From positions 27,543,923 through 27,607,922 of the forward strand of contig NC_085844.1 in NCBI RefSeq assembly GCF_035594765.1: a stretch of DNA of 64,000 bases. The letters run 5' to 3'. Positions 4,613-47,060 of this stretch are shown piece after piece; the first letter of the stretch is position 1, and every line of letters starts with the position of its first letter. A program made the position numbers and the translations under genes. This DNA comes from Anolis carolinensis (taxonomy: Eukaryota). Below the pieces are notes generated by a model. The model had not been told where the DNA came from. It ran no database searches and saw nothing but the letters and a program-made list of their open reading frames with translations.

Positions 4613-5855
4613 TAAGGGACACAAAGCTGGCGAATACAGTATACAGCCATTTTCTCCAACACCTTAACTGCCACCTTCCCAGTTCTGCTGCCTGAGACAA
4701 CATTGGTGAAATATCCACTAGTGTTGAATTTGCTTTGAACACAGAAATAAATTGAGAGGACGGAAGACCCATAAAGTAATGATCCTCCCATTAAGCTGGT
4801 AGGTGGATCTCCATGGCTTTTGCTGACCTTAAATGACGCCTCATAAATGAGCGAAAGCCATTTTGAACTAGAATGGGAAATGTTCTTTAAACACGGAGAG
4901 AAGAAAGCATTACAGATCTTAAAAGTGCCTATTGCCAAAGCGTGTTCAATCTCGTCAAGCTGATGGGAAGCGCCAATGGCACACCTGCCATTAAATGGAT
5001 CACTAGTAAAAGCCGTGAGCCAGTATTCCAGAGCAAAGCTTCCCTTTGAAGCTATTGTGGAACACACTCTGCTTCAAGGTCTGCAAGAAAGTAAGCTGTG
5101 ACGCATCACTCCCACATGAGCTCCCATGCCTGCCACAGCTTGCACGGCTTATGCGTTATGGGCTTTTTTTTTTGGGGGGGGGGGGTAGCAAGGATGGGTT
5201 TGATGGCTGCTGTCCTGGTCACCTTGCAAATCAATAGAGCTACAGAAACAATTATATTAAAGTGTTCAAAGGGATACACTTAACATTAACCTCATAAACC
5301 CATTTTATGGCATGGAAATCAAAGGCGCCCAGATTCCAGAGAGGCTGAGCACTCGGAAATCCCAATGGAGTTGCCAGTTGCCAAGTATGCTCACCTGACA
5401 TGATCCAAACTTTCTCTTATCTAGGGCCTAAACTGGATTTAGAGACTTAAACCTAGAGCTTTGAATGATTTGGCCTAAGGTCCATTTTGCAAACAAGAAG
5501 CGAAGCAATAGGTCAAATGCATGCCTGTTTCTGTTTCAGAACCTTTTTGAGTTGGTATGATTTTGCAGAGCTGAGAAGTAACACTTATTAGTAACTAGTT
5601 CATTGTGCATTTCCCCAATAGCAAAGGTATAACTCGGTGACTTGAAGGTTATAATGTAATAGGGGATAACTCATACCTTCCAATATTCCCAGATCAAAAC
5701 AGCCACACAATATCAGAGTGTGATCAGAATGGCAAAATTATTAATAAGGAAGAAGATACAAAATATAAAAGGCTTCAGCTATTGGCTTTTGCCAAAGCCT
5801 ACAGAGAAGAGCAAGATTCTAACTCTCCTGCCCTCCTCTCTACTCAGTTAAATAA

Positions 5856-22399: not shown

Positions 22400-24370
22400 C
22401 TGTTTCGAGTGATTAGAGGGCAATTACAAACTGGTTCTCAAGGAGAAATTTAGGATAAAGTCGCTCAGATCCATTCCGACATGGATGCTGTTATTTATAC
22501 AGTTCCAATGAATGTAACTTTGGCCCAGCTTGTCCAGTGTTGATGGATACATTTCAGTTTGTGCAGCCTGACGATGTGGGCAGGATCCTTGGAGAGGCGA
22601 GGGCTACCACATGTATTCTGGATCCTTGCCCTTCTGGCTGATCAAACAGGCCAGAGGGAGGATGGCAGAGTGGGTGAAGGTGGTAGTCAAAGTTCCAACT
22701 TGCCTAAAGGAGGCAGTTGTAAGACCTATACTAAAAAAGCCATTCCTGAACCCCTCTATAATGAATAATTATCAGCCAGTGTCCAACCTCCCCTTTCTGA
22801 GTAAGATCTTGGAGTGTGTGGTGACCTCCCAACTCCAGGGATTTCTGGATGATACAGATTATCTAGATCCATTTCAATCTGGTTTCAGGCCTGGCTGTGG
22901 AACAGAGACAGCTTTGGTCCCTGTGATGGCTGCCCTACGAAGAAAGCTAGACAGGTGATGTGTGTCCCTGTTGATTCTCCCAAATGTCTCAGCAGTGTTC
23001 AATATCATTGACCATGGTCTCTTTCTGGGTCATCTCACCCAGAAAGATACCATGTTTACTATGTTTACAGTGGCTCCAGTCCTTCCTGGAGGACTGTACC
23101 CAAAAGGTGGTGGACTCCTATTCAAACCCCTGACCATTGATCTGTTGGGTTCCTCAGGGTTCTATTTTGTCCCCCATGTTGTTTAACATATACATGAAAC
23201 CGCTGGGAGAGGTCATCTGGAGTATTGGAGTTCAGTTCCACCTAAATGCAGATGACACCCAACTCTACTACTCCTTTCCATCTAAAGCCAAGGAAGCTGT
23301 CCTGACCCTAAACCAGTGCCTGTCATCAGTAATGGACTGGATGAGGGCAAACAAATTGAAACTTAGTCCAGACAACACAGGGGTGCTCCTGGTCAGTCGG
23401 AAGGCTGCATTTCTGGCAGCTATTCTAGCTGACCCATGTCTCTGCTGTGTTTCCTTTCGCCTTTCCTGAAATGTGGGTACTTGCAAAATCTCCTCCTCAG
23501 ATTCCAACTGCTCCTCTGACTCCTGAACACTTTACTGCTCTCCTTCCTCTTCTGAAGAAGAGCAATCCCTAACAGGGAGCAGGGATCCAGCCTGTGCTTG
23601 ATGGAGTTACACTTCCCATGAAGACAGTTTTGGGGTCCTCCTGGACTTGGCACTGAATTTGGAGGCCCAAGTGTCAGCGGTGGCTGGGAGGATCTTTGCA
23701 CAATTCAAATTTATGCATCAACTGTGCCCATTCCTTGGGAAGCCAGATTTGGCCACAATGGCACATGCCTTAGTTCCACTCTGGATTACTGTAATGTGCT
23801 CCAGGTGGGGCTGCCTCTGAAGAATGCTTGGAAACTTCAGCTGGTCCAAAGAGCTACAGCCAGGCTGGAGCTGGCTATAGGGAGCTAACAAACCCGCCTG
23901 TTGCAGCAGTTCCACTGGCTCTCAGTCTATTTCTGGGCAGAATTCAAAGTGCTGGTTATGACCTTTAAAGCCCTAAGGCCTAGACAGTTCAGGTCCAGGC
24001 TATTTGGCTGACCGCATCCCCTTGTACAAACCTGCCTGGGCCCAGAGATCTTCAGGAGAGGCCTCTCTCTGGGTCCCACCTCCATCTCAAGCTCAATTTG
24101 TGGGAATGAGAGAGCAAGCCTTCCTTGACTTCTATGACTCTGGAACTCCCTGCCCAAGGAAGCCAGAACGGCTCCCTCCCTGCTGTCTATCTGGCAGCAG
24201 GCTAAAACCTTTATATTCAGGCAGGCTTTCAAAGAAGAAGGTTTTTACGAGCAAGTCAGAGGGTGCTGTGGTTTTATATGCTTTTATGGTTTAAATCTGA
24301 ATTGTTTTTAATATTAATTAGGTTTAACGCTGTTTAAAAATTTGTATATTTGTATATTTTAAGTTACCAG
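22400..24370 (+). pseudogene. Degenerate L2 LINE ORF2 (RT domain to 3' UTR)
   Basis: Frameshifted pieces NNYQPVSNLPFLSKILE, QSGFRPG, VPQGSILSPMLFNIYMKPL and NADD, colinear with the 44055 ORF2. Confidence 0.9.
23404..23574 (-). mobile_element. Truncated LTR 5' (U3) fragment inserted in the L2 relic, carrying the LTR ORF
   Basis: Interrupts L2 colinearity; minus strand begins TGTTAGG; frame +2 reads VRDCSSSEEEGEQ*SVQESEEQLESEEEILQVPTFQERRKETQQRHGSARIAARN. Confidence 0.6.
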
Positions 24371-29621: not shown

Positions 29622-30351
29622 TTCCAGGTGTTATCTTATTCATGGGTGCATCTATACTGTAAAAGTAATGCAGCCCGACACAGTTTTAACTGCCATGGCT
29701 TAATGCTATGGAATCATGGGAGTTATAGTTTAATAAGCGAAAGCTAAAAACCTTGTAACATCAAAGACTGATTTCCAGGTTGTCCAAAATTTATACCATT
29801 AGGAAACAAGTTTACAGAGTGCTAGGTTCAGAATGCAGCGTATTTTAGTGATTTGAGCTTTGGACTCTGGTGCTGGAGATGCGGGTTCAAACCCCCTTCT
29901 CAGCCATGGAAACCCACTGGGTGACCTTGGATGAGCCACACACTCTCACCTTCAAAGGAAGGCAAAAACAAACCCCCTCTGAACAAAGAAATTCCTGTGA
30001 TAAGTTCCCCTTAGTGTTGCCATAGGTTGGAGAATACTTGGAGGCACAAAACAACAGATTCTGAATGGTTGACCTTTTTTCTTAATTGAAATGGGAGTCA
30101 CCTCTCACACCTGCAAAAGGTGGAGACAGTACAACACACCCATGGCACAGTTGTCTGTGTGAGTCATTGTTCTGGGCATGTCTTGAGCAGAAGGATCAAA
30201 ACCCCAAATACTATGATTCAGCCAAAGACACAAGAAGCACACTCCTCTATTCCTTTGACCTAATGCTGCATCACTTAGTTCATATTATTTCTCACAGCAG
30301 ATGATAAATAGTTTATCTGTGGCATACTAGCTTTACCACACAGTCTAGAAT

Positions 30352-31217
30352 TGTCACGCCCCAAGGCTACGGAGCACCAAGAACCAAACACGGAGGCCAA
30401 TAACTATCTAATATCTTTATTAAGGAAATATATAAAAGTAATAAAAACAAGTAGAAAATATAGTCCAGAAGCAGACCTATCAAATGAGGTCAAATATAGT
30501 CCAGAAATGTTTTGTCCAATAAATGATATTAGAGTTCAAAGTTAAATCCAAACCAAAACACACACTATTGCCAAGCAATAGTGTGGGGAAACGTCCAGGG
30601 TCTTTCAGGGTCCAAGGTAAAAATCCACAACAAGGTACGAGGGCAAGACTTGATTCTTGAAACAAGGTCCGTGGCTAGAAGCAAAGCGAGGCAATTCTTG
30701 AAATACTTGAATGAGCAAGGCAAGGAAACTGGATTTGCGGACTTTGCGAAGCCCACACAAGGCTGGAACGCGATTTCACTCCTGAAGCTGCTCTGTTGAC
30801 TCCGCACAGATCCAACCATGCCAGGCACCTATATCTGGGTCTCGTTTTCCCGCCAAACAGGTGTCCAGCATTCTCTTTCCCTAGAGAACGGAAAACGAAA
30901 CCCAGTTTTCTCCAGATGTGAGACTCCCTAGATTTTTCCAAGGGAAGCATGGCTAATCAGTGTCTTGTTTAGCTGCGATTCTCAGACTCCTGCGAATCTG
31001 CTCCCTTTCTCTCCTTTCCGCAGTATAGGACTGTCTCCTGGCAAAAGGAGGCGAGGATTGCTCAAGGTCTTTTTTAATTGCTTCTTGGGCAAAAACATCA
31101 ACATCAGACATCTGAAAGGATTCCGGCTGTTGTTGATCCGGAGAAAACCCTATGTTTTCATCCTCATCTGCCACAGGGACACTAGGAGCGGGACTACAAG
31201 GCCCATGAGTCATCACA
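30352..31217 (-). mobile_element. Solo LTR (866 bp, Gypsy/BEL-like), young
   Basis: TG...CA termini; perfect 5-bp TSD agaat (30347-30351, 31218-31222); minus-strand TATA-like box ~30830 and AATAAA ~30416-30421; CpGs retained. Confidence 0.9.
30953..31216 (-). CDS. LTR U3-encoded ORF (87 codons): acidic stretch plus RRSLRIAAK basic motif; probably the C-terminal tail of an internal ORF
   Basis: Open from LTR nucleotide 2; homologous frames in four other LTRs in this window. Confidence 0.55.
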   Translation of the reverse strand: MMTHGPCSPAPSVPVADEDENIGFSPDQQQPESFQMSDVDVFAQEAIKKDLEQSSPPFARRQSYTAERREREQIRRSLRIAAKQDTD

Positions 31218-34200
31218 AGAATTAGCCTGCCACAAGGCAGCCATTCCCAACTTGCTCCTTAAAAGTGTGTTGGACTACACCTCCCATCAGAATGGCCTGT
31301 GGTCAGGGTGATGGAAATGTCATATATAGCAACATTTGGAGGACACCAGGTCCCAGGCTATCCGAGGTTGCCTGGGATTTCTCTAAGTTGCACAGATCCT
31401 ACTGAAAGTCCCTGACATCTGAGGGAGGGAGAGGGAAAAAACAGAAACATGGCAGGGATGAAGGAAGGAAGGTCCCAAAAGACATAGAAAGGACGCTCTG
31501 CTTTAGGTATTGTGTGTCCTCAGGGGGAAGAAGTAAAGCTGTGGCTGCTGTTTTACTCAGCACTGTGGGTCTCTCTCCCCCGGCACCAACCAACAACAGT
31601 CTATGGGTCTGTCTCACTCCCCACAAATACCAGTAAAGCTGCTGCTCCCCAGGACTGAGCAGCAACAGTTTGTGGGTCTCTCTCACCGCACACAAACACC
31701 AGGGGATAGGAGAAAAGCTTCAGCAAGCAGTCTGCTACTGAGCCCAGAGAGATCATCCCATAAATGCAGATTGTTGTACCATACTTAGTGAAAAATAGGA
31801 CACCCCTTGAATATAATCCATAGTGCGTCTTCCTGAGGAAAAATAAATATAAGATAGTGTCTTATTTTCGGGGAAACACAGTACCTCACTAGGGATTGTG
31901 ACATTGCACAACTGAATGGTAACCAAATGACCATCTGCATGAACAATGAATATTTCCATGCACAGCTCTACTTTCACGGCCTTGAACTGGTGTTCTCCAT
32001 CAGAGAAAAAAGTGTATAGCCACTTCTGGAGGAGAAGATATGCATGCAGAAGACGCCAACAGATTCCAGCTGAAGAATCTGTTATTGCAACCAGGGCAGA
32101 AAACAGATGTGTGTTGAAATGCTTACTTTGCCTTCTTGGGCAGGGTGAATCTATGTTATTTTACAGAGAGAAAATGGACCTGCAAATATTCATACACATA
32201 TTCACACTGGGCTCAAGTCATAGTACAGTGAACCCAAACAGCCAAGTTATAGAAGCAGCTGTCAGAAAATCAAAGAAGTAGCTTTCTACTGTCCCTTGAA
32301 ATAAGACCTGAATAATACATAAAATATCCAGCATCTTTCCTTTCATGAAACTCAAAATTAGCTTCCTAAAGCAGCCACTTGAGTCTACCTAATGGCAGAG
32401 CTGGCCCGGAGAAGCCCACAACTGTCAAACAATGTTGCCAGAGCAAAATCAGATGGGAACTGGTGTTGCTTCTCTCATTGCCTTAATAAATGTCCGAACG
32501 ATTGCAGTTGATGACATGATGTTGCAGCTATTCCACAGTGAGATGTAGAAGGAAAATGATGCCACTGGTTGTGATGTTTTCAGAGTGTTCCTTTTTGAAG
32601 CACTGTGCATCTCATGCAGCCCTTCCCAACAGATGCCCTGGGGTGTGTTCTACTACAGTGCCCATTGCCTACCATGCAGGCTGTGGGTGATGGGGATTGT
32701 AGTTTTGCACTTTGGGGGGCTTGGAGACAAGGTAATTTGAGGTAGCATTGCTTTCTGCCAAATCAGAGCCTCCCCCAAGCTCCTAACAGGAGCGAGCTGC
32801 CTGCCAATTTTGTCGCCTTCTCAACACAATATAGTTCAGGCTTGTGCTGTGCCATTTGTCACACTCCTACGAGGTTCTTTTGTATGTATGCATAGAAGAA
32901 AGAGGATTGCCGCTTGTTACCACTATCATATATACTAATGGATCTGTCATGCAGTTTCAGAGTTTCTCTCCCCCACCCTGCATTATGTGTAGGATTTGAT
33001 TTGCTAACACTATCCAGAAGGTTACAGCCGTCTGGTATCACACGGACATTTGCTGGAATTTGAATTACACTGCAAATTCAGGAAAGCGAGGAGTCTTCCA
33101 TTAACTAGCTCTACTTAAAAGAGAGAGAAGGAAACAGGATGCTCTGCTGAATTCCTGCCTATTTGCTTTGAGATTTTGGCAGTTAGGAGATGACCGTGCT
33201 CTCTGCCTTCGAATGATGCCCTGGTACAAATAAATATATTCAGCATGGCACTGCACAGCAGACAATCAGCATCAGCACCAAATCCCTTTAATATTACAGA
33301 GTCATAGCTCTGAGACTCTACTTTAACTGCCATGGCAACATTTTATAGAAGGCTGGGATTTGCAGGTTTGGAAGGGATATTTAGACTTCTTTGCCAGAGA
33401 GCTCTGGTATCTCAATCAATGTAATCATAGTGTTACAATAATTGTGTCATGTGAATTGGTTCAATATAGACACATTGTCATGCACAGATGTTGACACTTT
33501 TTCCCACAGCAATGAGGGACAGAAACTTGTTTATTTTTTTTTAAAAAGCAAGTTTTCCTGAGATTATTTGCAGACAACTGGTTTATATTTTATGTTGGCC
33601 TTGCGTCTGAGTTCAGGAAGAAAGCAAAACAAGTGTCCAGTTTGACCTATCCCGTCTGCATTGTGCTGTGCACCCAACTCACATTAATCTGCAGTAAAAA
33701 TGGAGAACCATCAAGGGAAGGGAAAGTGGGCTACACCACAAGATTCCAGTGAAATGGAAACCTCTTATTTGGAAAGAATGGAAGCTGCTTCCCCCCAATT
33801 AAAAAAAAAAGATATTGCAAAGATACTGCATCTTTCAGGCCAATATAACTATTGCAGTAGGCAAAGATAAAGATTAAAGCCTCTCTGTCCAATTCACACA
33901 AACTCAACACACATATAGCAAGGTTCCCATCCATACTGGATCCCCTGTACATGCCATTTATGATATAACATGAGCTGTATCATACATAATTGGATTTTCA
34001 TATTGGTTGGCTCAGGCTGCATCATTATTCCTACTTAATGAGGAAGACATTTCATGGAGCATATTGGTATTTACTTTGATAAGGATGTAAGAAGAACCCT
34101 TCTGGAGCAGACTCAAGGCCTATCTAGATCAAAACTTTGAAAACCCTCACCACTATTACTTTTTGGACTCCTGTCTGGCATTTTTGCAGCCAGTATGCCG

Positions 34201-44042: not shown

Positions 44043-44054
44043 CTATCCCCTTCA

Positions 44055-47000
44055 ATGGGCAACCTCAATCAGTCATCTCTCCAGGGGGGAGAGGGTTTCC
44101 ACGGGCAGGGTCTCATTGAGGTGGTTTGGGGGAGAAGGAAGAACGGTCACTTTCGACCCAGGGAGAAGCGCAACAGAGTTTTTGCGACCCTGGAGAGGAA
44201 TAGGTGTGGTAGTCTTCAGGACAGACCTCCCAGCCTTAAGGTCCTGCTTTTGAACGCCAGATCCGTCAACGGTAAAACAGCTGTTATCCAGGATTTGATC
44301 CTGGATGAGGGGGCGGATCTGGCATGCATCACCGAGACGTGGTTGGACGAGCAGGGTGGTGTGAATCTCACTCAGCTGTGCCCACCAGGTTTCGGGGTGC
44401 ATCAGCAGGCCAGGGCTGGGGGGCGGGGAGGAGGAGTCGCGGTGATCTTTCGGCAGTCCATCGCCCTGATCAGATGCGCCGTTCCGCAGTCTTCGAGGTT
44501 TGAGTGTGTCTTCCTGAAGGTGGGAGCCCGAGACAGCTTGGGGATTCTGCTGGTGTACCGTCCACCCCGCGACCCAGCAGTCTCTCTGTCCGAGCTAGCA
44601 GAAGTGGTCTCCAATTCGGCCCTGGTCTCCCAACAACTCATAGTTTTGGGGGACTTTAATATTCATGCCGAGACCTCTTTGACAGGTGCAGCTCAGGATT
44701 TCATGGTTGCCATGACGACCATGGGGCTGACTCAAGTTATATCTGGGCCCACACATCAGGCGGGACACACGCTGGACCTCGTCTTCATTGTGGACGGTGG
44801 GACAGTCAGAGTGGAAGAGCAAAATATTCTTCCATTGTCATGGTCTGACCATCATCTGATCTGTTTGAGTTTCGCCGTGTCTTCTAACCTCCGCAGGGGT
44901 GGTGGACCCATTAAGATGGTCCGCCCCAGGAGGCTGATGGATCCGGATGGACTCCTGAGGTCTCTTGGGGATCTTCCTGTTCTGGAGACTGGCGATCCTG
45001 TCGATGTCCTGGCTGATCGCTATAATAGTGAGCTGACAAGGGCACTTGACACGATCGCTCCCGAACGTCCTCTTTCGCTGCGTAGAGTCATGTCGACTCC
45101 TTGGTTCACTGAGGAGCTGGCTGTGATGAAGCGTGCGAGGAGGGGACTAGAGTGCATCTGGAGGAAATCTCGGGATGTGTCTGACCAAACACGGGCTAAA
45201 GCCGCTATTAAGGCTTACTCCGTGGCTCTGCGAGCAGCCAGGAAAGCTTTCACGACTGCCCGCATAGCGTCTGCGGCCAACAGGCCATCGGAGTTGTTCC
45301 GAGTTGTTGGGGAGCTCCTGCGGCCTCCTGAGACCCAGGGGCTTCCTGATGACTTGGCAACTAGGTGCAGCGATTTTGCGCACCACTTTGCAGGCAAAGT
45401 TGCTCAGATACGCCATGAGTTGGACTCCAGCTTAATTGTAGTTCCAGCGGAGGTAACCGAGGCACCTGTCTGTCCGATTTTGTGGGATTCTTTCCGGCTT
45501 GTTCTTCCGGATGACGTGGAGGGGATTCTTGGGTCTGTGAGGGCGACCACTTGTGCTCTGGATCCTTGTCCCTCTTGGCTGGTTAAGCAGGCCAAAGAGG
45601 GGTTGTTGGATTGGTTTGTGGCTATAATAAATGCCTCCCTGGGTCAGGGGTCATTTCCATCTTGTTTTAAGCAAGCGGTGGTAAAACCGTTACTAAAAAA
45701 GACCTCGCTAGACCCATCTGTATGTAACAACTACAGACCAATTTCCAACCTCCCGTTTTTGGGCAAGGTTCTGGAGCGGGTGGTGGCCACGCAGCTCCAG
45801 GAGTTCCTCGATGACACTGATTTTCTGGACCGCTCGCAGTCTGGCTTCAGGCCTGGGTACAGCACTGAGACGGCTTTGGTCGCCTTGGTGGATGACCTCC
45901 GCAGGGAACTGGACAGGGGGAGTGTGACCCTGCTGGTTCTCCTGGACATCTCTGCGGCTTTCGATACCATCGACCATGGTATCCTTCTGGGGAGGCTCTC
46001 CGGGATGGGACTCGGTGGCACTGTTTTGCAGTGGCTCCAGTCCTTCCTGGAGGGCCGTTCCCAGATGGTGAAGCTGGGGGATACCTGCTCGGACCCCTGG
46101 CCTTTGACCTGTGGGGTCCCGCAAGGGTCTATTTTATCCCCCATGCTTTTTAACATCTACATGAAACCGCTGGGAGAGGTCATCCGGAGTTTTGGAGGGT
46201 GTTGCCATCTCTACGCAGATGACACACAAATCCACTACTCGTTCCCACCTGACTCCAAGGAAGCTCCTTGGGTGCTGAACCAGTGCCTGGCCGCTGTGGC
46301 GGACTGGATGAGGAGGAACAAGCTGAGGATCAATCCTGACAAGACAGAGGCCCTCCTGGTCAGTCGCTCGTCGGATCGGGGTATTGGGTGGCAACCTGTG
46401 CTGGACGGGGTTGCACTCCCCCTGAAATCACAGGTCCGCAGTTTGGGGGTCCTCCTGGATTCAGCGCTGACGCTTGAAGCGCAGGTGTCGGCGGTGGCCG
46501 GGAGGGCTTTTGCACAACTCAAACTTGTGCGCCAACTGCGACCATACCTCGTGAAGTCTGACTTGACCACGGTGGTGCATGCATTAGTTACCTCTAGACT
46601 GGACTACTGTAATGCGCTCTACGTGGGGCTTCCCTTGAAGACGGCCCGGAAGTTACAGCTGGTCCAACGTTCGGCCGCCAGACTAATAACGGGGGCGAGT
46701 TACAGGGAGAGATCTACTCCCCTGTTTAAGGAGCTCCACTGGCTGCCGTTCATCTTCCGGTCCCAATTCAAGGTGCAGACCATCATTTATAAAGCCCTAA
46801 ACGGTTTGGGACCCGCCTACCTTCGTGACCGTATCTCCTATCATAAACCTGCCCGACCTCTCCGATCATCGGGGGAGGCCCTCCTGTCGCCACTACCTAT
46901 ATCTCAGGCTCGCCTTGTAGGAACAAGGGAGAGGGCCTTCTCTGCGGTGGCCCCTCGCTTGTGGAACTCGCTGCCCATTGAAATCAGGCAAGCCCCCACC

Positions 47001-47060
47001 CTTTTAGCCTTCAGGAAAGATTTAAAAACATGGCTCTTCCGGTGTGCTTTCGGAGAGTAA
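44055..47060 (+). CDS. L2 LINE ORF2: AP endonuclease and reverse transcriptase (1001 aa)
   Basis: APE motifs LLNARS, ITETWL, GDFN, LDL, SDH; RT motifs LDISAAFDTIDH, GVPQGSILSP, YADD; L2-type SRLDYCN and LHWLP. Confidence 0.97.
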   Translation: MGNLNQSSLQGGEGFHGQGLIEVVWGRRKNGHFRPREKRNRVFATLERNRCGSLQDRPPSLKVLLLNARSVNGKTAVIQDLILDEGADLACITETWLDEQGGVNLTQLCPPGFGVHQQARAGGRGGGVAVIFRQSIALIRCAVPQSSRFECVFLKVGARDSLGILLVYRPPRDPAVSLSELAEVVSNSALVSQQLIVLGDFNIHAETSLTGAAQDFMVAMTTMGLTQVISGPTHQAGHTLDLVFIVDGGTVRVEEQNILPLSWSDHHLICLSFAVSSNLRRGGGPIKMVRPRRLMDPDGLLRSLGDLPVLETGDPVDVLADRYNSELTRALDTIAPERPLSLRRVMSTPWFTEELAVMKRARRGLECIWRKSRDVSDQTRAKAAIKAYSVALRAARKAFTTARIASAANRPSELFRVVGELLRPPETQGLPDDLATRCSDFAHHFAGKVAQIRHELDSSLIVVPAEVTEAPVCPILWDSFRLVLPDDVEGILGSVRATTCALDPCPSWLVKQAKEGLLDWFVAIINASLGQGSFPSCFKQAVVKPLLKKTSLDPSVCNNYRPISNLPFLGKVLERVVATQLQEFLDDTDFLDRSQSGFRPGYSTETALVALVDDLRRELDRGSVTLLVLLDISAAFDTIDHGILLGRLSGMGLGGTVLQWLQSFLEGRSQMVKLGDTCSDPWPLTCGVPQGSILSPMLFNIYMKPLGEVIRSFGGCCHLYADDTQIHYSFPPDSKEAPWVLNQCLAAVADWMRRNKLRINPDKTEALLVSRSSDRGIGWQPVLDGVALPLKSQVRSLGVLLDSALTLEAQVSAVAGRAFAQLKLVRQLRPYLVKSDLTTVVHALVTSRLDYCNALYVGLPLKTARKLQLVQRSAARLITGASYRERSTPLFKELHWLPFIFRSQFKVQTIIYKALNGLGPAYLRDRISYHKPARPLRSSGEALLSPLPISQARLVGTRERAFSAVAPRLWNSLPIEIRQAPTLLAFRKDLKTWLFRCAFGE

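Follow-up and report, generated by a model that had tools for sequence, protein, structure and literature searches.

The minus-strand reading frame at 30953-31216 of the window (the whole 64,000-nucleotide stretch of Anolis carolinensis DNA analysed here) corresponds to the C-terminus of a retrotransposon integrase, which in full-length relatives continues past a chromodomain into the 3′ LTR, and the residues of its closing motif, RRSLRIAAK, are under purifying selection as protein. We consider it probable that this motif acts as an HMGN-type acidic-patch tether on the integrase, working together with the chromodomain; the case for the acidic patch is built on the resemblance of a motif of 5-8 residues and on its conservation.

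An integrase tail read into the LTR

The frame lies in an LTR on the minus strand, with the following features.

30352-31217, minus strand: solo LTR of 866 bp, TG...CA, of a Ty3/Gypsy chromovirus family (from its sequence and genome matches)
30347-30351, plus strand: left copy of the TSD, AGAAT, 5 bp (from the sequence)
31218-31222, plus strand: right copy of the TSD, AGAAT, 5 bp (from the sequence)
30953-31216, minus strand: Pol/integrase C-terminal tail frame, 87 codons plus stop (LTR-encoded, after the chromodomain, in full-length relatives)
31058-31216, minus strand: acidic Pro/Ser-rich linker of the tail (from the translation; predicted to be disordered from its composition)
30968-30994, minus strand: RRSLRIAAK, the HMGN-like motif, starting 13 residues before the stop (from conservation)
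30828-30835, minus strand: TATA-like element, the putative LTR promoter, downstream of the tail frame (motif scan)
30416-30421, minus strand: AATAAA, the likely polyadenylation signal (motif scan)

The presence of AGAAT on both flanks of the 866-bp LTR indicates that this is a solo LTR, and all 40 of the genome matches scored, from 4605 candidates, were 89-100% identical to it. The tail frame begins at base 2 of the LTR and translates, from 31216 to 30953, as VMTHGPCSP...EQIRRSLRIAAKQDTD followed by a stop; since the TATA-like box is downstream of this frame, the tail is located in U3. The window LTR holds no pol and has its frame upstream of the TATA-like box, and it probably makes no such protein, being in all likelihood an inert relic. 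We rejected the reading of this copy as an expressed gene, for which no support was found at the level of the sequence.

Three LTR pairs among the genome matches of the window LTR (L031-L033) were taken as full-length parents, and these enclose gag and pol, with a within-pair identity of 96.6-99.1%. Pfam analysis of L031 revealed gag, zinc knuckle, protease, RT, RNase H, integrase, SH3 and Chromo domains, and the domains of its pol follow the PR-RT-RNaseH-IN order of Ty3/Gypsy elements, while the TG..CA LTRs and short TSDs that flank gag-pol are those of Ty3/Gypsy chromoviruses. The Chromo match of the parental Pol was above the Pfam cut-off (E 3.4e-9); this chromodomain aligns best with HP1/CBX1 and has an aromatic residue at all three cage positions of group I chromodomains, as these are given in the available part of PMC3605345. 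The pol frame of L031 (2841-5768) enters the 3′ LTR, which starts at 5507, so that RT, chromodomain, polypurine tract and the LTR-encoded tail are all read in a single frame, which ends RRSLRIAAKQDTD. The frame of the chromodomain region entered the 3′ LTR in all three parents and reached the motif in two of them; in L033 it is the frame with the distal chromodomain that reaches the motif, and that of L032 breaks after its entry into the LTR.

This same-frame read-through behind the chromodomain identifies RRSLRIAAK as the end of the integrase tail. An earlier note on this DNA, made from the sequence alone, had described the motif as LTR-encoded, and the motif does lie in the LTR, but it is not a free LTR product because the frame is the integrase C-terminus. 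The note had also suggested that the motif replaces a chromodomain, and had advised checking whether the parent elements lack one; the parents of both LTR families found in the window carry a chromodomain, which in the window family is continued in frame by the tail, and the suggested replacement is thereby refuted. The acidity of the linker that the note had called acidic and disordered was borne out by the four tails measured, in which the net charge was −7 to −12 for the linker and +4 to +6 for the last 28 residues, whereas its disorder is a prediction from composition only.

The nearest named proteins were Anolis carolinensis Gypsy Pol models. No Pfam family was found in the tail, and searches with it returned one chance-level match in the PDB by sequence and none in the ESM Atlas. 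A monomer model of the chromodomain plus tail had a mean pLDDT of 51.6 and a misfolded chromodomain, and the motif helix in this model was given no weight.

The earlier note had paired this peptide with another at 23574. Both are indeed present, in the minus-strand frames 31216-30953 and 23574-23404, but they do not come from the same element.

23404-23574, minus strand: first 171 bp of a ~540-bp LTR from a second chromovirus family, interrupted by an in-frame stop and carrying a decayed motif (from genome matches)
22531-23866, plus strand: decayed LINE fragment (endonuclease-RT type) that holds the 171-bp LTR piece, outside the tail module

When the window LTR was compared with the window by BLASTN there was no match at 23.4-23.6 kb, and we therefore rejected the view that the two peptides are copies of one LTR: the 171 bp belong to a distinct ~540-bp family. 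From 23574 to 23404 the minus strand translates as VRDCSSSEEEGEQ, a stop and, further on, QQRHGSARIAARNAA, with HGSARIAAR, the decayed motif of the second family, at 23438-23412. In 20 copies of this family picked by DNA similarity, RRSAR was intact in five, Arg5 was kept in all 20 and Ser3 in 18, and the damage was mostly at two CpG-containing Arg codons; the HGSAR of the window is decay of this kind. The second-family parents, from four distinct loci and each broken to some degree, have a purine tract in common as well as chromodomain sequence before the LTR frame, and this family is thus built like the window family. In the upstream part of one locus (L058), the integrase region of a second-family element is interrupted by an oppositely oriented LTR from another tail-bearing family. 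The repeat families D9, D14 and D18-D20 of the LINE fragment match a LINE ORF elsewhere in the window (44043-47060, plus strand), a stop-free and apparently intact frame of 1005 codons with endonuclease and reverse transcriptase.

Conservation and tolerance of the motif residues

A degenerate DNA pattern for RRSxR[I/L]AA[K/R] had 16,577 genome matches compared to six for the reversed control, where the pattern also admits a few further residues and the counts measure copy number and not independent origins. The first 30 matches of a stricter pattern with Ala at position 4 were all LTR tails of the same kind, in five DNA clusters, and RRSxR was present in 29 of 30 copies of the window family, some of which are the two LTRs of one element. 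Since tails picked by the motif would make a test of selection circular, loci picked by their chromodomain were used. This motif-blind set comprised 46 Pfam-Chromo loci (30 plus a further 16 that were picked from a list of 150 with their tails unseen), namely five host genes, 19 loci of a second chromovirus clade and 22 of the tail-bearing clade. Of the 22 tail-bearing loci, 16 had RRSxR intact and in frame, 13 residues from the stop, while three of the remainder were point-damaged and three frameshifted with the motif still visible. The second chromovirus clade, although amplified in the same genome, has no such motif in the chromodomain frame of its 19 loci. Members of that clade (L099-L109, L193, L194) have the chromodomain sequence YFVRWKHFP, and their pol mostly stops straight after the chromodomain.

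Ser3 and Arg5 were kept in all 17 frame-intact, chromodomain-picked copies, with codons that vary synonymously. The earlier note had made the HMGN-like resemblance depend in part on the conservation of these two residues, and because both are conserved the resemblance survives that test. We estimated selection on these 17 copies, reduced to 12 lineages, after exclusion of L083, L096, L098 and L187 (broken frames) and L184 (missed by the pattern). The omega of the tail was 0.30, with lnL −1985.1 compared to −2038.2 at omega = 1 (2ΔlnL = 106). At motif codons 1, 2, 3 and 5, pS was 0.805 and pN 0.049, the pairwise values not being independent, and the pN/pS of the nine motif codons (0.216) was the lowest among the tail segments listed, against 0.488 in the rest of the tail. 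The motif Ser is encoded by both AGY and TCA and the motif Arg by all six codons, and the distance from motif to stop is constant at 13 residues in tails whose length varies from 58 to 97 (11 motif-picked clusters). A frame-blind test of indel lengths, in which 43% versus 21% of gaps were multiples of three, was only suggestive. These data indicate purifying selection on the motif residues as protein. The segment ADEEENLGF was nearly as constrained (pN/pS 0.247), and RRSxR is thus not the sole selected part of the tail. An S-P-P-F-x-R/K element about 20 residues before the motif is also conserved (alignment A2), with PTFQER as its counterpart in the second family.

The consensus end of the integrase is R-R/K-S-x-R-I/L-A-A-K/R, most commonly as RRSARIAA. 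Arg is nearly invariant at positions 1 and 5, position 2 is Arg or, in some lineages, Lys, position 4 is A, L, T, S or M across tails, and position 9 is Lys in 9 and Arg in 8 of the 17 copies; the Leu at position 4 of the window family is absent from the HMGN, Dsup and Dot5 motifs compared. Lys at position 2 had 172 genome matches against 11 for its Gly control, and all 14 of the loci fetched (L207-L218, L221, L222) were LTR tails ending RKSxRLAAR. Compared to the 16,577 matches of the motif pattern, Lys at position 1 had 14 and Lys at position 5 had 40, with 13 for the Gly control at position 5. Judged by these counts, Lys at positions 1 and 5 is close to the level of decay, and the excess over Gly at position 5 may reflect small Lys-5 lineages. 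One locus (L220) has an acidic tail that resembles the second family and ends RRSAKIAARTLNNQTSP, and a second locus shares its 26-base match; the two may form such a lineage.

Taxonomic range of the tail

Outside Anolis, Pol models of Podarcis muralis (five proteins in two subfamilies) have a different acidic linker and end in PRRSARLKA. The three gene models from Vipera, Crotalus and Rhineura have acidic tails and basic ends with no intact RRSxR, the Rhineura tail ending KRGRP. The motif was absent from the fish tails inspected, one frog protein has RRSRRLHR, and among 124 chromodomain-bearing representatives from a profile search, many of them apparently host proteins or spliced models, none had RRSxR[ILV] beyond the chromodomain. 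In a tree of the SH3 domain plus chromodomain, the tail-bearing lizard families grouped with Podarcis and Rhineura at a support of 85/82. This is moderate support for a grouping of the squamate tail-bearers, and since it is no higher than 85/82 a single origin of the tails is not established.

Four fish Pol models (P0060, P0087, P0099, P0112) have an AT-hook-like RGRP behind the chromodomain, followed by a Gly-rich stretch to SPEF, SPEY or SPDF, which by its sequence is possibly a different chromatin-binding addition in the same place. Database gene models P0131, P0139 and P0288, the last named as a host gene isoform, include LTR tails, and are possibly either annotation artefacts or cases of exonisation of a motif-coding LTR.

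A candidate nucleosome tether and its relation to known systems

The lizard tail shares an R-R-S-x-R core followed by I/L with HMGN (RRSARLSA), Dsup (RRSSRLTS; both in PMC12487698, in part) and Dot5 (RRSARIAT), and the commonest lizard form, RRSARIAA, equals the Dot5 motif in seven of eight residues. According to the available text of PMC12487698, the arginine anchor is residue 5 of the motif in cryo-EM structures of both HMGN2 (R26) and Dsup (R367), whereas the second contact is made by Arg1 in Dsup, with Arg2 loosely held, and by Arg2 (R23) in HMGN2. The anchor therefore aligns with the least exchangeable residue of the lizard motif, and the lizard pattern, strict at Arg1 and Arg5 and loose at position 2, fits the Dsup register. 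Yeast Dot5 is described as binding nucleosomes through the acidic patch by means of its arginines (PMC13347269, in part), and a loop of APC3 carries a partial HMGN motif (PMC11910654, in part).

The partner, register, phospho-control and role in integration that we infer would fit together as follows. In an integrase ordered as chromodomain, acidic linker and R-R/K-S-x-R-I/L-A-A-K/R end, the R-R/K-S-x-R motif would engage the H2A-H2B acidic patch in the manner of HMGN, with Arg5 as the arginine anchor and Arg1 presumably making the second contact. Thanks to the flexible linker, the motif could sit on the nucleosome face while the chromodomain is on a methylated H3 tail. The integration complex would in this way be tethered to chromatin, mitotic chromosomes possibly included. 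Ser3, which is invariant, could be a phospho-switch, since phosphorylation at this position was modelled as blocking binding and a switch was proposed for S24 of HMGN2 (PMC12487698, in part). The same source reports that AlphaFold 3 misplaces even HMGN2 on the nucleosome. Several findings stand against the tether: position 2 varies to Lys, whereas R23 is a main contact of HMGN2 in that account; the window family has Leu at position 4; Lys at position 5 exceeds its Gly control; further segments of the tail are constrained too; intact RRSxR is missing from the snake and Rhineura tails, and RRSxR[ILV] from the 124 chromodomain-bearing representatives; and the second clade has been amplified (19 of the 46 loci) without the motif.

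It is possible to explain the conserved tail end in other ways. A cis-acting DNA or RNA element of U3, or chance read-through of a functionless peptide, might account for a stretch that does lie inside the LTR and whose first LTR codons are constrained as DNA (pS 0.23), but the motif codons are near synonymous saturation (pS 0.71-0.81) with their residues kept at an omega of 0.30, Ser comes from both codon families, and the position of the motif relative to the stop is fixed despite the variable tail length. This codon pattern largely refutes such an explanation, which we regard as highly improbable. It is unlikely, though not to that degree, that the tail end is instead a basic helix that binds nucleic acid (target DNA, linker DNA or element RNA) or another acidic partner: the basic residues 1, 5 and 9 are helically spaced between helix-prone, proline-free flanks, the upstream SPPF-R/K element is conserved too, and the RGRP of fish and KRGRP of Rhineura suggest that different basic modules occupy the same place, yet a basic helix would be expected to tolerate Lys, which hardly occurs at positions 1 and 5, and Ser3 is invariant.

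A nuclear localisation signal, which the earlier note had offered as an alternative, is a weaker option than acidic-patch tethering and a shade more doubtful than the basic helix. A C-terminal signal of this kind in Ty1 integrase is cited in PMC3605345 (in part). The lizard tail has a comparable basic cluster at the integrase C-terminus, and some 13-15 residues before it another RR/RK, a spacing like that of bipartite signals. The major site of classical importin-alpha requires Lys, but in the tail positions 1 and 5 stay Arg, and conservation extends to the Ser and to the I/L-A-A that follows. What likelihood is left beyond the acidic-patch tether and these three explanations belongs to partners that we have not considered.

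How vertebrate LTR retrotransposons gain access to chromatin and choose their sites has been poorly tested, and the tail is a short and delimited candidate tether that yields residue-level predictions (Arg5 as anchor, Ser3 as switch) and has a natural control in the tail-less chromovirus clade of the same genome. A broader proposal, which we advance tentatively and hold to be somewhat short of an even prospect, is that squamate chromoviruses, without recourse to host HMGN genes, evolved a two-handed integrase reader of nucleosomes, in which an HP1-like chromodomain is joined by an HMGN-type acidic-patch anchor, LTR-encoded and switched by Ser phosphorylation; this reader would steer the timing or site of integration, and more than 16,000 motif-coding LTR copies in a single lizard genome would be its legacy. 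If the binding is true, retrotransposon integrases would join Dsup, Dot5 and APC3 as cases of HMGN-type acidic-patch mimicry, and LTR-encoded integrase extensions would contact chromatin in animals too, besides the plant CRM elements.

The lizard tail differs from HMGN in its position at the end of a retrotransposon integrase, in having no HMG14_17 domain by Pfam, which places it outside the HMGN family, and in its DNA. Comparison of 97 tails with three host HMG14_17 loci, one of which has an RRSARLSA exon, gave no blastn match. The idea that the motif was captured from host HMGN found no support, the weak tblastx matches being antisense to the tails. The absence of the domain and of blastn similarity to these loci points to convergence of the motif with host HMGN.

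The lizard elements, putative sushi-type Ty3/Gypsy chromoviruses, have in common with vertebrate elements of that type a gag with CCHC, the PR-RT-RH-IN-SH3-chromodomain order, no env seen and a 5-bp TSD. The fish sushi-type Pol tails inspected are short and end SPEF or SPEY without the motif, unlike the lizard tails.

In plants, read-through into the LTR that encodes a targeting motif is known in CRM elements (PMC3059260 and PMC3605345, both in part), and in some Bingo families of beet the ORF extends into the LTR beyond the chromodomain (PMC3605345, in part). CRM group A is like the lizard elements in this read-through, but there the CR motif replaces the chromodomain, whereas in the lizard elements, comparing by description, a true group I chromodomain precedes the polypurine tract and the LTR-encoded HMGN-like module. 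Steering of integration by chromodomains is cited in PMC5053271 (in part). No retrotransposon integrase with an HMGN-like or acidic-patch motif was found in the literature searched, which included few subscription papers and lay outside Repbase and supplements; nor was the lizard architecture found described there, and the available portion of PMC11011659 does not discuss it.

Acidic-patch tethers are known from KSHV LANA, CMV IE1, foamy virus Gag and probably MLV p12, and the foamy virus Gag motif shapes integration sites (PMC9040877, in part). These viral tethers likewise use a short arginine motif, which there anchors a mobile genome to nucleosomes, but they reside in Gag or latency proteins, whereas the lizard candidate sits on the integrase, where the LTR encodes it and a chromodomain accompanies it. 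LTR read-through motifs and acidic-patch tethers are thus each known already, and what appears to be new, within the literature searched, is an HMGN-like motif on an integrase, behind its chromodomain.
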